Below are positions 41,516 to 47,379 of a stretch of 64,000 nt of DNA, one piece after another; the first letter of the stretch is position 1, and every line of letters starts with the position of its first letter. Source of the DNA: Chitinophagales bacterium (lineage in GTDB: Bacteria > Bacteroidota > Bacteroidia > Chitinophagales > UBA10324); NCBI GenBank assembly GCA_025056305.1, contig JANWWJ010000031.1:66861-130860 (forward strand), in the 5' to 3' direction. The position numbers and the translations under genes were made by a program. Below the pieces are notes generated by a model, which had not been told where the DNA came from, did no database searches, and was given only the letters and a program-made list of their open reading frames with translations.

Positions 41516-41612
41516 AGGTGTTTGTTACAGGCATAAATAAGGATTTGTAGCGGGCCGAAGAAAAAAATGTAGCGCACGTCCCTTTGTAACCGTACTATCT
41601 TTGCGTGCCCAC

Positions 41613-42092
41613 ATGGCCTGGTGGCACATCGTTTTGATCTTGCTTTTAGGCTGGCTGCTGGTAATGCTGGAAGTGTTTTTGATTCCGGGCATCACGCTGT
41701 TAGCCATCGTGGGCTCGCTGACCATGCTGGCCGGTGTAGTGCTGGCCTACAGCCACTTCGGCGCGCTGTGGGGCACCGTAACGCTGTTGGGCACGGCCGT
41801 GGTCACGTTGCTGAGCATCATTTACGGCTTTCGCAGCGGCCTGTTGGGCTGGCTGACCCTCAAAAGCAAGGTGGAAGGCCGCATGAACGTCATTGATGAA
41901 ACGCGCATTCATGTGGGGGACCGTGGCCTGGCCCTCTCTAAGATCGCTCCGGCAGGCAAGGCCCTCTTCGGTAACGATACCTATGAGGTACATTCGCACC
42001 ACGAATGGATTGAAGAAGGCTCGGAAGTGGAAGTTACCCGCATCGGCCTGGGAAAGATTTATGTAAAACAAATTCATAAAAATAATTCGTAA
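41613..42092 (+). CDS. NfeD family membrane protein
   Basis: N-terminal TM helices plus a C-terminal OB-like soluble domain ([30 protein letters not shown]). Its stop overlaps the floA start (TAATG). The ATG is at 41613; the track starts at TTG 41601. Confidence 0.8.
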
Positions 42093-43072
42093 TGGATCTA
42101 ATCGTTCTGGGCATTTTCATTCTGCTGATTCTCGGCGCCATTTTTCTGTTCCTGTATTTTGTGCCGCTGGGCCTGTGGGTCACGGCACTGGTAGCCGGCG
42201 CGCCGGTCAGCATCGGGCAGTTGATAGCCATGCGCATCCGCAAGGTTCCGCCGGGGCTGGTGGTCAATGCCCTGATCAATGCCACCAAAGCCGGGCTCAA
42301 GGTTACGGCCAACGACATCGAAACCCATTATCTGGCCGGCGGGAACGTCAACCAGGTGATCCGGGCTATGATTTCGGCCGACAAGGCCAACATACCGCTC
42401 GACTGGAAAATGGCTACGGCCATCAACCTGGCCGGCCGCGATGTGTTTGAAGCCGTGCAGATGTCGGTTAACCCCAAGGTGATTGACACGCCCCCGGTTA
42501 CTGCTGTTGCCAAAAATGGCATTCAGCTCATCACGCGCGCCCGCGTCACTGTGCGTACCAACATCAACAAGCTGGTTGGGGGCGCCGGTGAAGAAACCGT
42601 ACTGGCCCGCGTAGGGGAAGGCATTGTTTCCAGCATTGGTTCAGCCAACGACCACAAATCTGTTCTGGAAAACCCCGACTCCATTTCCAAGGTGGTTTTA
42701 GCCAAAGGCCTGGATGCAGGTACCGCTTTCGAAATCCTTTCTATTGACATTGCCGATATCGATGTAGGCAAAAACATCGGTGCCTACCTGCAGATGGATC
42801 AGGCCAATGCCGACAAAAACATTGCTCAGGCCCGGGCTGAGGAACGCCGCGCTATGGCCGTGGCCTTAGAACAGGAAATGAAAGCCAAGGCCGAAGAGAT
42901 GCGCGCCAAGCTCATCGAAGCTGAAGCACAGGTGCCTATAGCCATTGCTGAAGCCTTCCGCAACGGTAACCTGGGAATTATGGACTACCACCGAATACGA
43001 AACCTGCAGGCCGACACTCAAATGCGCGAATCCCTGGCCAAAGGGCCGGAAACACCTCCGCCTACACCTTAG
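42092..43072 (+). CDS. floA: Flotillin-like protein FloA (UPF0365/YqfA family, SPFH domain)
   Basis: N-terminal TM hairpin, then [19 protein letters not shown]...VNALI.A.KAGL and an Ala/Glu-rich coiled coil ([29 protein letters not shown]). Paired with nfeD as in B. subtilis yqeZ-yqfA. Confidence 0.85.
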
Positions 43073-45197: not shown

Positions 45198-45315
45198 ATT
45201 TCGATTGGATTGATTTTTTCAGCTTCACTAAGTCCTTTCTTGAGGTACTCGTGAACAAAAACTTTCGCATACGGGGGACTTCTCGTCCTTGGTTACCTTG
45301 CAAAATTCAATAAAC

Positions 45316-45333
45316 GAAGGCTTTTAAGCCTTC
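45316..45333 (-). terminator. Hairpin directly after the last gene of the island
   Basis: GAAGGCTT-TT-AAGCCTTC abuts the TAA stop (45334-45336). On the minus strand it is followed by GTTTATT. The U-tract is modest. Confidence 0.45.
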
Positions 45334-46359
45334 TTATGTTTGAGATAAGCCTTCTTTTGCAGGAAGATACTTTTCGCTTGTTTGATTCGTAAGCAATTCC
45401 ATCCTTTTAATAAAAACTTCTCTCTGGCGCGATACAATCACATCGTAATCATCCTGCTGGTCAGCATATTTATTTACTAAAACAAATAATTCTATTGCAA
45501 AAAAAAATAAAAATAAGAAGAACCAAATAAATAAAGCGACAGCATTTGAGAGTAAAATCGAAAATAACACAATCAATTCGTCTAAAAAACCGGTTTTTGA
45601 TTTCAGCTCAGCCTCCAGGTTCTCCCGGATGGCAAAAAGTCTGTTTTCTGACTCTAACTTTTTATCACGTAGGATTTGTATTTGTTTTTCTAAATCATTC
45701 AGTCGTGCAATGTTTGGGTTTTCTATGTGTCGCGATTTTACGCGTCTTTCCGTAGCTACTCGTTTTCCGGCTGTGTCAATCACGTATTGTTGATCGACTT
45801 CATAAATTATTCTTGTAGGATTTTTCTCAATATCTTCACTTAATAATCTAACCTCGGCTTCTTTGATCATGATGGTCGAATCCAGGCTATTAATCTGAGC
45901 AACAAGTTCCTGGGTTTTTTGTGGAAGAATTTTATTGACCTCTTCTTGTATGTTGGAAATTTTTTTCTTTTCAACGTCCTCCTTGAAAAGCATCTGATCA
46001 ATGATTACCGAACCAATCACGGCCATGACAACACCAATTAATCCTCTGAATAAACCCGATATACTCGACCAAAACTTTTTTTGAGTAGATAGAATAATTT
46101 GTCTTTCGATGCTAATTACAATTATAATCATGATTAAAGCAACAGCCACGGATGTATATAAGTCTTCACGTAAGTATCTTTGCGCAAACGTGTAGCCAAT
46201 AAATCCCCATATGATACTAATTATAAGAATAGCAGCAAAATATTTTTTCACCGATTTAACGCTTGCCTCGCTACAGTTTTGTAGAATAAGGTAATTACGC
46301 CCCGTAATAAAGCAGCTTAGCCACAGAATAAAATCATTAATATATTTAGACATTTTCAT
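45334..46359 (-). CDS. DUF4407-like membrane protein (N-terminal TM helices, long central coiled coil, C-terminal TM segment)
   Basis: 341 aa. The N-terminus FILWLSCFITGRNYLILQNCSEAS..KKYFAAILIISIIWGFIGYTFA and SIERQIILS resemble my recollection of the DUF4407 signature. Hydrophobic stretches lie at about residues 40-60, 67-85, 102-124 and 268-300. Residues 125-265 have a heptad-like charged pattern (EEVNKILPQKTQELVAQINSLD...LEKQIQILRDKKLESENRL). Confidence 0.65.
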   Translation of the reverse strand: MKMSKYINDFILWLSCFITGRNYLILQNCSEASVKSVKKYFAAILIISIIWGFIGYTFAQRYLREDLYTSVAVALIMIIIVISIERQIILSTQKKFWSSISGLFRGLIGVVMAVIGSVIIDQMLFKEDVEKKKISNIQEEVNKILPQKTQELVAQINSLDSTIMIKEAEVRLLSEDIEKNPTRIIYEVDQQYVIDTAGKRVATERRVKSRHIENPNIARLNDLEKQIQILRDKKLESENRLFAIRENLEAELKSKTGFLDELIVLFSILLSNAVALFIWFFLFLFFFAIELFVLVNKYADQQDDYDVIVSRQREVFIKRMELLTNQTSEKYLPAKEGLSQT

Positions 46360-46368
46360 AAAACGTTA

Positions 46369-46935
46369 TTATGCCAATTCTGATTTTGTAATTGCAATCA
46401 ATCCTTGTTTAAAACCTCGCTCATACGATAGGATGACGTTTTCAAATAGCCCTGAATCGTTATTAATCTGATCTTCAATTTCTTTAATTCTGTTGATGTC
46501 TATCATTATTTTCTCTTTGTTCTTTTTAAGGTCTTGTACCGTATTATCTAAACCAGCCTTAGCCAACAAATCTATTTTAAGATCGATATCCTTTATTGCT
46601 TTTTCATATTCGCTAATTTCTTTCATTATTATGATTTTCACATTGTTCTTAAGAATCTTTATTCCATTTGCCATGTTACTTAAGTCTGAGTTAGTCAGAG
46701 CATCATGATATCCCATTGATTCGTAATTTCTATTAAGAAATGAATAAATTTTATCAATGCCTTTCGATTCTTCATTTGAAGAACTTATTGGTGGTAGTTC
46801 CTGAGGATCTCTTTTTTCAACAAAAACGTCCTCAGGGATACCGTTTTCTGCCGCGTTTCTTGTGATGTTATTTGCATTGTTATCGACAACGGTCTGGGGC
46901 TTATTTCTATTAAAAATCAGGTCAAAAAGTTTCAT
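46369..46935 (-). CDS. Hypothetical soluble protein: low-complexity N-terminus plus C-terminal coiled coil
   Basis: 188 aa with no TM segment. The first roughly 60 aa are N/P/E/S-rich. Residues about 95-165 are heptad-like (EISEYEKAIKDIDLKIDLLAKAG...KEKIMIDINRIKEIEDQI). No family recognised. Confidence 0.55.
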   Translation of the reverse strand: MKLFDLIFNRNKPQTVVDNNANNITRNAAENGIPEDVFVEKRDPQELPPISSSNEESKGIDKIYSFLNRNYESMGYHDALTNSDLSNMANGIKILKNNVKIIIMKEISEYEKAIKDIDLKIDLLAKAGLDNTVQDLKKNKEKIMIDINRIKEIEDQINNDSGLFENVILSYERGFKQGLIAITKSELA

Positions 46936-46957
46936 TATTTTAAATTTACGTTAATGA

Positions 46958-47269
46958 TTATTTTACATATTTAATGGGGACACTGTATAGTTTGTGTCCT
47001 TTGTAATGGCAGGTTTCGCAAAGGGTTATTAATAAGCGGTTGTCGTAATCCCATGGATGCTTAAACGTATTCAACGACATTGAAAAATGGTATTGCCTAT
47101 GATGAATATGCAAGCGCTGATCTGACTTACAAATTACACATTGATGGTTATCTCTGGCCAAAATCTCACTTCGCTTTGCTTTCCACCTTGGGTCAAGCAA
47201 AATTGTATCATAATTCTCGCGATAAAGGGGGCCCTGTTTAATAGAATCTAAGTAAAAATCGGTGTTCAT
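46958..47269 (-). CDS. Small stand-alone HNH endonuclease
   Basis: 103 aa. WKAKRSEILARDNHQCVIC(C44,C47)...LHIHH(H56,H57)...DN(N77)RLLITLCETCH(C84,C87,H88). This gives the full CxxC...HH...N...CxxCH zinc-finger HNH signature. Confidence 0.75.
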   Translation of the reverse strand: MNTDFYLDSIKQGPLYRENYDTILLDPRWKAKRSEILARDNHQCVICKSDQRLHIHHRQYHFSMSLNTFKHPWDYDNRLLITLCETCHYKGHKLYSVPIKYVK

Positions 47270-47379
47270 GATAAAAGGTGTTTGCTAATATAAAAACTTT
47301 ACTCAGTGCACTCGCCTCAAATGCACTTGTGTTAATGAAAATAAATCAGCTCCGCCCAAAAATTCGTTGATCATCATGC

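Follow-up and report, generated by a model that had tools for sequence, protein, structure and literature searches.

The described defence systems that lie closest to the locus reported here are Zorya type II, Kiwa, Septu and Lamassu. In Zorya, an inner-membrane component carries a long coiled coil; perturbation of the envelope is sensed, and DNA is then acted on near the membrane (PMC11946911). ZorE, the HNH effector of Zorya type II, is a nickase (PMC11890865). Kiwa (KwaA-KwaB) is a small operon that pairs a multi-pass membrane protein, which presumably detects infection at the envelope, with a soluble cytoplasmic partner, and has no nuclease slot. Septu (PtuA-PtuB) employs a small HNH effector and requires the ABC/AAA-type ATPase PtuA. 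Lamassu (LmuA-LmuC-LmuB) is a three-gene system whose nuclease-type effector can be exchanged; a small protein is encoded in the middle, and the long coiled-coil protein, LmuB (DUF3732), is a soluble SMC-like ATPase.

The cassette found in our window, by which we mean the whole 64-kb stretch of DNA that was analyzed, shares features with each of them (Table 1). As in Zorya type II, an inner-membrane coiled-coil protein is combined with a small HNH effector (a predicted one here), a constant membrane core is accompanied by exchangeable soluble effectors, and the proposed logic is envelope sensing followed by attack on DNA near the membrane. In contrast to Zorya type II, g1-g3 gave no PADLOC match to ZorA, ZorB or ZorE and no Pfam MotA_ExbB or OmpA domain, the flanks hold no ZorA- or ZorB-like gene, and a MotB-like peptidoglycan-binding partner is absent from the cassette. 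Whereas the tail of ZorA is C-terminal and cytoplasmic, the coiled coil of the four-TM DUF4407 protein is placed between TM3 and TM4 and is probably periplasmic; the putative adaptor g2, moreover, has no Zorya counterpart. With Kiwa the cassette has in common the small operon, the multi-pass membrane protein and the soluble partner, but it lacks any match to KwaA or KwaB (DUF4868), and KwaA is not known to have a long coiled-coil insert. Like Septu, it sets a small HNH effector, here a predicted one, beside a non-enzymatic-looking partner, but no PtuA or PtuB match and no ATPase were found in the cassette or its flanks. Its three-gene composition and effector swapping around a constant core recall Lamassu, but DUF4407 is membrane-embedded without an ATPase head, and no PADLOC or Pfam profile for Lamassu matched.

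Searches of g1, g2 and g3 against PADLOC-DB v2 (E <= 1), Pfam, NCBIfam and PHROGs assigned no named system, and across these profile comparisons no homology ties any of the three to a proven defence protein. The preliminary description had likewise recognized no named system in the trio and had considered the partners of Septu and Zorya absent; both statements hold, as PADLOC-DB v2 has no profile that would place the three proteins in such a system and PtuA, ZorA and ZorB gave no match.

Table 1. Features of the cassette, in positions of the window
Feature	Position	Strand	Description
g1	46958-47269	-	103 aa; first operon gene; predicted small HNH nuclease (beta-beta-alpha-Me, zinc-finger type)
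g2	46369-46935	-	188 aa; new family without Pfam entry
g3	45334-46359	-	341 aa; DUF4407 (PF14362) inner-membrane protein
Terminator-like hairpin	45316-45333	-	7-bp GC-rich stem GAAGGCT/AGCCTTC directly after the g3 stop; marks the operon end
Leader	47270-47379	-	110 nt, AT-rich, GC 0.31-0.32, from the DoxX stop to the g1 start; presumed promoter region
GC-poor island	45200-47350	.	~2.15 kb; contains the entire cassette

Each of the three genes starts with ATG, and intergenic gaps of 22 nt and 9 nt separate them in the ORF listing. Together with the hairpin, these values reproduce exactly the layout from which the preliminary description had deduced a single operon of three close minus-strand ORFs. 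Its further statement that this is the sole strongly AT-rich coding stretch of the window, and that it lies between housekeeping-type genes, agrees with the GC profile (0.32-0.41 at 45-47 kb and >=0.43 elsewhere in the 64-kb window) and with the flanking annotation, which comprises MIP, a Na/Ca exchanger, NfeD, FloA, a T9SS-sorted protein, DoxX, H+-PPase, MTS methyltransferase and RibD. The g2-g3 core has a GC content of 0.336, compared with 0.495 in the remainder of the window, and the cassette copy lies 16 GC points below its own genome. The compositional edges, located near the two ends of the island given in Table 1, indicate recent horizontal acquisition. A scan of the leader that does not model Bacteroidota promoters revealed no convincing sigma-70-type or consensus promoter site, and an Rfam search for structured RNA or an IscB-like omega-RNA returned nothing credible.

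The product of g3 is a full-length DUF4407 member: residues 25-312 cover positions 2-296 of the 297 in profile PF14362 (E = 6.8e-40; 137.6 bits, cut-off 31.3), and the family and accession named in the preliminary description are both correct. An AF2 model of moderate quality (pLDDT = 72.7) and hydropathy analysis predicted four hydrophobic segments and a central helix/beta-hairpin/helix domain, arranged as a basic N-terminus, TM1-3 (~40-124), a helix (126-179), a beta-hairpin tip (182-213), a second helix (215-255), the TM4 region (258-299) and a C-terminal helix. The family alignment has invariant polar residues within the membrane or close to it (E85-R86-Q87, D121-Q122 and E290), among them E290 as an invariant acidic residue buried in TM4. 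The entropy profile identified the beta-hairpin tip as the most variable segment of DUF4407 (2.48 bits), with three main length classes. Lysine and arginine residues number 8.3 in the N-terminus, 1.2 in loop 1, 2.3 in loop 2 and 7.0 in the C-terminus, and the positive-inside rule, taken on its own, favours a periplasmic over a cytoplasmic coiled coil. Also counted toward the topology was the natural fusion of g2, which has no signal peptide, to the DUF4407 N-terminus. The earlier view of g3 as a membrane coiled-coil protein is borne out for the three N-terminal TM helices, the long coiled coil and the C-terminal hydrophobic block, while a cytoplasmic coiled coil becomes the less probable arrangement.

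Sequence-profile and structure searches of the PDB with g3 revealed no analogue, the profile matches being at chance level. One weak fold match appeared in BFVD, to an uncharacterized marine-phage protein (E = 2.7e-3, TM 0.25). Pfam gives no functional annotation for DUF4407, and its partnership with g2 and nucleases is unrecorded in the literature that we searched for DUF4407, PF14362 and IPR025519, where the family, also in the supplements of defence-discovery papers, is mentioned only incidentally in gene lists.

For g2, of which 255 cluster representatives (50% identity) were collected, an AF2 model built from a 4-row alignment (pLDDT = 63.2, again moderate) suggested a short N-terminal amphipathic helix, a disordered linker (~10-56) and a helical domain (60-187). 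Where a low-complexity N-terminus and a heptad-rich C-terminus had been noted previously, the model has its N-terminal third disordered and its C-terminal domain helical. The N-terminal motif is MGLF across the family and MKLF in the window copy, and an alignment of 45 sequences has Y76, D78, Y110, G128, Y171, G174, F175 and G178 as invariant positions. Searches of Pfam, PDB sequences and Foldseek gave no match, with only chance-level results in the PDB profile search. We propose that g2 is a cytoplasmic adaptor linking the nuclease to DUF4407.

Assignment of g1 to the HNH nucleases draws mainly on PHROGs and on conserved residues. Its Pfam scores, 12.7 bits for HNH (gathering cut-off 21.4) and 13.7 bits for HNHc_6 (cut-off 26.6), are sub-threshold, and the expected PF01844-type match was not reached in Pfam; the affiliation is instead indicated by PHROG_119 'HNH endonuclease' (4e-14), by 15 more HNH phrogs and by the invariant residues. 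The HNH region of IscB in NCBIfam also matched (3.4e-5), and the sole PADLOC match was 'HEase' PDLC03698 (E = 0.009), with no ZorE model. In an alignment of 32 sequences, the invariant positions are C44, C47, H56, H57, C84, C87 and H92, with H88 close to invariant. The HNH signature, described before as complete, therefore stands for its cysteines and histidines, gains the previously unnamed H92 and loses N77, which is not conserved in the family. Judging by this alignment, the asparagine of canonical HNH enzymes is either lacking or has moved to another position, and catalytic activity of g1 is for that reason an assumption. The gene evolves under purifying selection (omega 0.11-0.27).

The three families co-localize in many other genomes, the trio recurring in hundreds from Bacteroidota, as the preliminary description had proposed to check. 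DUF4407 served to retrieve 69 genome loci, and wherever the contig is long enough g2 is its direct neighbour in the same orientation. HNH occurs in 29 of the 69, each time immediately upstream of g2, and at no other position within +-10 kb. Retrieval through HNH yielded 80 metagenome loci: 68 full trios, eight with HNH and g2 in which the contig end cuts off the remainder, two permuted trios (HNH-DUF4407-g2), two too short to judge and none without partners. At least 78 of the 80 thus contain g2, and DUF4407 is also there wherever the contig reaches. Gene spacing across cassettes is mostly -4 to +13 nt; in a Persicobacter relative with 28% identity, the trio is kept with overlapping stop and start codons. 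Two candidate partnerless HNH genes (L166 and L167) were rejected, both being permuted trios, as was an apparent contrast between a locus with and a locus without HNH but with identical g3 (L078 and L079), which proved to be a missed gene call in identical DNAs. The g2 and DUF4407 pair is the conserved core of the module.

Natural fusions join exactly the neighbouring components and thereby define the linkage order nuclease - g2 - DUF4407 N-terminus. Two proteins (P0040 and P0053) fuse g2 to DUF4407, a third (P0331), present on contigs of two samples, fuses HNH to g2, and a fourth (P0340) fuses PLDc_2 to g2, preceded by Endonuclease_NS and followed by DUF4407. At this one locus PLD and Endonuclease_NS thus take the place of HNH, and in 14 loci of one subclade the trio is directly bordered, on one side or the other, by an HSDR_N gene. 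The nuclease slot held HNH at the root, and HNH was lost at least seven times, with a remnant retained at one locus (L008). These comparisons show a small nuclease slot upstream of the core pair, with HNH as its ancestral occupant. About half of the lineages have no linked nuclease, and no substitute nuclease recurs among the immediate neighbours of the HNH-less pairs; g2 (omega 0.04-0.12) and g3 (omega 0.02-0.12) are nonetheless strongly constrained, the range of 0.02-0.12 for the pair including clades that lost HNH. Fusion of the nuclease to g2 and its replacement by PLD or Endonuclease_NS argue for functional integration with the core and against a hitch-hiking homing gene. None of the comparative checks that the preliminary description had named as possible refutations went against it. 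Its reading of a self-contained membrane sensor or scaffold plus nuclease module is strengthened by the fusions and the nuclease swapping, but HNH is not obligatory, and the core turns out to be the pair that had been treated as accessory.

On balance, we favour the view that the cassette belongs to a conserved conflict system of Bacteroidota that has three components and moves horizontally, most likely an undescribed defence against phages or mobile elements. We infer the defence function from the genomic behaviour of the cassette. In the mechanism that we envisage, DUF4407 would be a four-pass inner-membrane protein with cytoplasmic N- and C-termini, whose 130-residue antiparallel coiled coil, capped by the fast-evolving beta-hairpin, would reach into the periplasm. 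This stalk could report what happens at the envelope, for example adsorption of a phage, ejection of its DNA or damage to the cell wall, and the signal might pass the membrane via a helix bundle with the invariant buried polar residues E85-R86-Q87, D121-Q122 and E290. Sitting on the basic DUF4407 N-terminus, g2 would then release or activate the nuclease at the membrane, the site of foreign DNA entry. In lineages without the nuclease, DUF4407 may itself be the effector, for example through ion leakage, or the pair may sense for unlinked effectors.

More tentatively, and with clearly less confidence, DUF4407, g2 and the nuclease could represent an unrecognized class of envelope-sensing immunity, in which a fast-evolving periplasmic antenna and an adaptor license interchangeable nucleases (HNH, PLD, Endonuclease_NS and HSDR_N-type) where DNA enters. 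Such a system would amount to a motor-less analogue of Zorya assembled from unrelated proteins, its nuclease-free pair being a stand-alone membrane effector or sensor. If the defence reading is right, it would provide the first function for DUF4407, a widespread Pfam family, and for the unannotated g2 family, and would add a defence system to Bacteroidota, a phylum whose repertoire is poorly charted, with relevance to gut and environmental microbiomes and to phage therapy. It would also constitute a second, structurally unrelated route to phage sensing at the envelope and DNA cutting at the membrane, so far represented by Zorya and Kiwa, and comparison with these two would reveal the essential features of the envelope-sensing strategy. 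The fusions and nuclease swaps hint at which proteins touch, the size of ~2 kb makes cloning easy, and the frequent nuclease-free form separates sensor from effector for study.

Of the alternatives, a resident module for envelope or membrane homeostasis, which would sense stress, remodel the membrane or take up and process DNA, with a dispensable nuclease and no immune role, is unlikely. In at least seven lineages the pair has stayed under strong purifying selection after nuclease loss, and HNH-less pairs match host GC and in some Bacteroidales are syntenic across related MAGs (clusters 13-17 and 23-29); such conservation, synteny and GC amelioration fit a resident cellular function better than an immune gene with fast turnover. 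Many cassette loci, that of the window included, lie among housekeeping genes, and one large subclade retains genes for a TPR-histidine kinase and a response regulator upstream. The g2 N-terminus (MGLF...) further recalls what we take to be the membrane-binding N-terminal helix of PspA/Vipp1, a likeness on which we do not rely; the fold search with the g2 model did not support it, and neither the g2 nor the g3 model resembles PspA/ESCRT-III or any envelope protein fold. Residence is also at odds with the 48 different flank pairs among 54 cassette loci, with the window copy as a recent GC-anomalous insertion, and with nucleases of different folds being swapped and fused at one slot, a behaviour typical for conflict systems. 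Known defence genes, finally, often lie nearby in other genomes, as the preliminary description had suggested checking: de-duplication left 300 neighbours within 10 kb, among them type I RM, Cas10/Cas1/Csm3/Cas7, DarT/DarG, KwaB, PDC-M16B, PDC-M19 and mad2 (E 1e-19 to 1e-216). Proximal and distal sets alike contain defence genes, and the survey records presence rather than enrichment over genome background.

Rather improbable, in our estimate, is a two-part module resembling abortive-infection or toxin-antitoxin systems, in which DUF4407 would be a membrane-damaging toxin restrained by g2, with the nuclease as a secondary toxin, and which may stabilize genomic islands besides or instead of providing anti-phage defence. 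The operon is small, self-contained and tightly coupled, its flank diversity and GC are those of a mobile unit, the pair persists without the nuclease, and the buried E290 in TM4 and the conserved E85-R86-Q87 and D121-Q122 are compatible with an ion path. A toxin and its labile antitoxin would, however, not usually be fused in the way that g2 and DUF4407 are, neither PADLOC nor Pfam has a TA or Abi model that g2 or g3 matches, and the long, variable and probably external stalk points to sensing more than to a simple pore. This possibility overlaps with the defence system that we prefer and does not exclude it.

That the cassette is instead selfish, with HNH as a free-standing homing endonuclease spreading a 2-kb unit and g2-DUF4407 as cargo, we regard as very unlikely. 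The island in the window is short, GC-poor and solitary; cassettes with HNH are GC-low relative to their own flanks while those without are not (p = 8e-4), and thus look more recently transferred; HNH was lost repeatedly, leaving the L008 remnant; the top profile matches of g1 are phage HNH endonucleases; and assembly contigs often break at cassette ends. Nevertheless, we found no direct or inverted repeats, TSD or TIR bordering the island, no conserved insertion site, no empty site in a search through the flanking DoxX gene, and no genome with multiple cassette copies among the 69. Nor would a homing gene be expected to fuse to g2, to give way to PLD or Endonuclease_NS or to show the purifying selection seen for HNH, and g1, at 103 aa, has no extra DNA-recognition domain. 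The many contigs of 2.0-2.3 kb had also raised the idea of a tiny replicon or multi-copy element, which was unsupported: the assemblies are fragmentary, long contigs carry one copy each, and terminal repeats are absent.

Ordinary prophage, ICE or plasmid genes, for example for superinfection exclusion, are a highly improbable source despite the GC anomaly, the likeness of g1 to phage HNH families and the BFVD match of g3, since no larger prophage or ICE surrounds the housekeeping-flanked window copy, integrase, capsid, terminase and conjugation genes neither flank it nor recur at other loci, g3 has no relative among 50,697 phage records or in IMG/VR contigs, and a collection of 72,556 plasmids contains one weak match, on a 1-Mb replicon.

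Individual loci of the preferred conflict system differ in their company: Cas9 together with HSDR_N, a DUF4011-helicase-REase, Fic and DUF3800, an nSTAND3 ATPase and a WYL-WCX regulator each occur beside cassettes, and the KwaB neighbour in one locus belongs to a separate system.

The cassette comprising an HNH gene (g1), g2 and the DUF4407 gene g3 forms a conserved operon whose g2-DUF4407 core is constant and whose nuclease slot is exchangeable and dispensable. Searching species-representative genomes with a profile of DUF4407 relatives yielded 69 loci, nearly all of them in Bacteroidota (Bacteroidales, Chitinophagaceae, Sphingobacteriaceae, Flavobacteriaceae, Cytophagales); IMG/VR viral contigs contributed none. 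Wherever the contig reaches, DUF4407 is directly preceded by a co-oriented g2. The HNH gene occurs in 29 of these loci, plus one remnant (L008); it always directly precedes g2 and is found at no other place within 10 kb. Conversely, of 80 metagenome loci retrieved with the HNH alignment, 68 carry the full trio, eight carry HNH and g2 on a contig ending short of g3, and two are too short for judging partners. The other two, L166 and L167, were ruled out as HNH loci without partners: they are permuted trios, in which HNH is followed by DUF4407 (2.2e-25) and then by a g2 homologue (hhalign probability 96.9%) and a WYL-WCX regulator lies upstream. The three families thus co-localize in other genomes. 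Gene spacing is mostly -4 to +13 nt, and a 28%-identity relative on a 1-Mb Persicobacter replicon has the trio too, its stop and start codons overlapping.

Some copies (P0002, P0048, P0054, L012, L069) lie on contigs binned to Nitrosotenuis, Saccharibacteria, Methanosarcina, Chloroflexota or Deltaproteobacteria MAGs; their sequences nest in Bacteroidota clades, and they are probably mis-binned short contigs, not cross-domain transfers. Cassette contigs in Logan and JGI (L001-L006, many others) are often 1.6-2.3 kb and end near the cassette boundaries, which fits assembly-graph branching where strain flanks differ (presence/absence or varied contexts in one sample).

The preliminary description of the cassette in the window was reproduced in its three exact ORFs with 22- and 9-nt gaps, the hairpin past the last stop and the only strongly AT-rich stretch (GC 0.32-0.41 versus at least 0.43 elsewhere). 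GC is 0.336 in the g2-g3 core versus 0.495 in the remaining window, with sharp island boundaries at ~45200 and ~47350. The flanks are indeed of housekeeping type: MIP aquaporin, Na/Ca exchanger, NfeD, FloA and a T9SS-sorted protein on one side, and DoxX, H+-pyrophosphatase, MTS methyltransferase and RibD on the other. They contain no integrase, phage or conjugation genes, and no flanking direct or inverted repeats were found. The NfeD-FloA pair, ~2 kb away (FloA flotillin-like, PF12127, E = 4.7e-159), is an ordinary membrane-microdomain operon whose linkage to the cassette was not seen in other loci.

Coordinates and loci of the cassette and associated features
Feature	Sequence	Position	Strand	Remarks
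g1	window	46958-47269	minus	103 aa, ATG start
g2	window	46369-46935	minus	188 aa, ATG start
g3	window	45334-46359	minus	341 aa, ATG start
GC-rich hairpin, 7-bp	window	45316-45333		directly 3' of g3 stop
NfeD-FloA	window	41601-43072	opposite to cassette	
Genes past DUF4407	L078	11000-14123		= L079 2004-4338
SNase homologue	L138	2065-2658		
SNase homologue	L127	3216-3788		
SNase homologue	L097	2177-2767		
SNase homologue	L170	4650-5174		
SNase homologue	L080	11797-12297		
HSDR_N gene abutting trio	L097, L098, L100, L102, L108, L116, L127, L141, L144, L149, L154, L157, L159, L160			
Longer cluster	L047, L048, L050, L055-L057, L059, L062, L082			+ 17 metagenome loci (e.g. L140, L125)

The guess that g3 belongs to DUF4407 was borne out by a full-length match to PF14362 (E = 6.8e-40). 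In its AF2 model (pLDDT 72.7, pTM 0.44), helices 31-62, 67-91 and 97-124 precede a long one at 126-179; after a β-hairpin (182-213) the chain returns through helix 215-255, and helices 258-299 and a C-terminal helix complete the model. Averaged over the family, hydropathy marks four membrane segments; the K+R count is 8.3 at the N-terminus, 1.2 in loop 1, 2.3 in loop 2, where acidic residues are absent, and 7.0 at the C-terminus. Based on the positive-inside rule and the fusion of cytoplasmic g2 to the DUF4407 N-terminus, we predict an N-in/C-in topology, which would place the coiled-coil and β-hairpin domain in the periplasm. Within DUF4407, variability peaks at the hairpin tip (2.48 bits, three main length classes) and conservation in the TM segments; polar residues E85-R86-Q87, D121-Q122 and E290, located in the membrane or at it, are invariant. 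No significant structural analogue of the g2 or g3 models was found in PDB or BFVD, and profile searches of PDB sequences gave no match for either. The top BFVD match of the DUF4407 model, A0A8D9CE73 (E = 2.7e-3, probability 1.00, TM only 0.25), comes from an uncultured marine phage and is an uncharacterized protein of 382 aa; it could be a remote DUF4407-like protein carried by a phage, or the match could reflect mere coiled-coil similarity.

Judged from its alignment, g2 is a genuine protein family despite having no match in Pfam, NCBIfam, PADLOC or PHROG. An exhaustive phmmer search yielded only 255 cluster representatives, nearly all single-domain proteins of 175-200 aa. Across 45 aligned sequences, the N-terminus has an invariant M..F (MGLF in most members), the linker varies and the helical domain is conserved (Y76, D78, Y110, G128, Y171, G174, F175, G178); in the predicted model, a disordered linker connects a short N-terminal helix to a helical bundle (core pLDDT 82-93). 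In one representative, P0296 (259 aa), ~118 residues precede the g2 domain; they have no Pfam match and may resemble the N-terminal Arm DNA-binding part of tyrosine integrases in Bacteroidota. P0296 may stem from a chimeric gene call or from the remnant of an integrase next to the cassette.

g1 falls below the Pfam HNH threshold and matches PHROG_119 'HNH endonuclease' (4e-14). Invariant in a 32-sequence alignment are C44, C47, H56, H57, C84, C87 and H92. The proposed HNH signature therefore holds for C44/C47, H56-H57 and C84/C87, and H88 is nearly invariant; N77 is not conserved in the family, so the canonical HNH Asn is missing or displaced. No entry in a 5.8-billion-protein collection is identical to the window g1 (best match 61% identity); identical entries exist for g2 and g3 (P0121, P0001; Chitinophagales MAG, contig 207231), and the source record probably lacks an annotation for the small HNH gene. 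In L078, too, the HNH gene escaped JGI gene calling. Surveys built on annotated proteins thus under-count the nuclease.

Natural fusions are collinear with gene order and join neighbors only: g2-DUF4407 (P0040 and P0053, 495 aa; single ORF confirmed by L077), HNH-g2 (P0331, contigs of two samples, DUF4407 next) and PLDc_2-g2 (P0340, PLDc_2 at 2.1e-20), the last with DUF4407 downstream and an Endonuclease_NS gene upstream. The nuclease slot therefore takes different folds while g2-DUF4407 stays constant. Parsimony on a neighbor-joining tree places HNH at the DUF4407 root with at least seven losses, and no recurrent substitute nuclease appears among immediate neighbors of HNH-less pairs. g2 and g3 are under strong purifying selection (omega 0.02-0.12), HNH-losing clades included; omega for HNH is 0.11-0.27. 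The cassette behaves as a mobile accessory module: 54 loci show 48 different flank contexts, and core GC minus flanks has a median of -0.030 with HNH versus +0.003 without (Mann-Whitney p 8e-4, phylogeny ignored).

Neighboring genes were screened with PADLOC (150 de-duplicated within 4 kb, 150 at 4-10 kb). Strong matches included type I RM methyltransferase and specificity subunits, a type II methyltransferase, Cas10, Cas1, Csm3, Cas7, Csa3, an RtcR-CARF regulator, DarT, DarG, KwaB, PDC-M16B, PDC-M19A/B, PDC-S54 and mad2. Cas9 adjoins HSDR_N in L082, and DUF4011-helicase-REase (L062) or Fic and DUF3800 (L007) lie near the cassette. In L078, a 494-aa protein without Pfam match begins 13 nt past DUF4407, followed by a 73-aa ORF and a 459-aa nSTAND3/AAA ATPase, which may form a separate STAND-type defense system stacked on the cassette. 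Proximity to defense genes is seen at many loci; others, the window included, have purely housekeeping surroundings. As a tally of neighbor matches, these data are suggestive of an association.

We infer that the cassette is a defense or conflict system. The earlier defense-module idea, apart from N77, stands after the tests of co-localization, prophage or ICE membership and assignment to a named system, and the cassette is a well-supported candidate for a new defense system of uncharacterized families, with predicted function and mechanism. The exposed DUF4407 stalk would sense an envelope event, which g2 would couple to a nuclease acting at the membrane; in nuclease-less lineages the membrane protein itself may be the effector. 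The chief competing reading, a resident module that serves an envelope function and has the nuclease as an accessory, is favored by nuclease-free pairs being many, stable and GC-ameliorated. Membership of the region in a prophage or ICE is contradicted by the lack of relatives in the phage records searched, a single weak match in plasmid collections and the gene content of the flanks. As the preliminary description had it, the trio belongs to none of the named systems tested: no PADLOC-DB v2 model places any of the three proteins, PADLOC and Pfam did not support membership in Zorya II, Kiwa, Septu or Lamassu, and DUF4407 appears in the literature searched in gene lists only. The nearest analogues in logic are Kiwa and Zorya II, which combines membrane ZorAB with the HNH nickase ZorE (PMC11890865, PMC11946911).

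Further genes accompany the trio. An HSDR_N gene (restriction-endonuclease fold, ~360 aa) abuts it in 14 loci of one large subclade and also occurs at L048 and L082, lying 46-96 nt past g3 or up to ~150 nt ahead of HNH (five loci: 38-63 nt), in the manner of a fourth component switching sides. In the same subclade (Chitinophagaceae/Sphingobacteriaceae), the trio sits in a longer conserved cluster: upstream are genes for a TPR-histidine kinase of ~555 aa and for a response regulator (221 aa, receiver domain alone detected), accompanied by small ORFs of 69-112 aa, among them one with DUF5763, and a divergent gene encodes an uncharacterized protein (~303-330 aa); this cluster may provide dedicated regulation. 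Staphylococcal-nuclease (SNase) homologues also recur near the cassette, the L138 representative with a lipoprotein-like signal sequence; with gaps of 195-1325 nt their linkage is looser than that of HNH or HSDR_N and may be coincidental.
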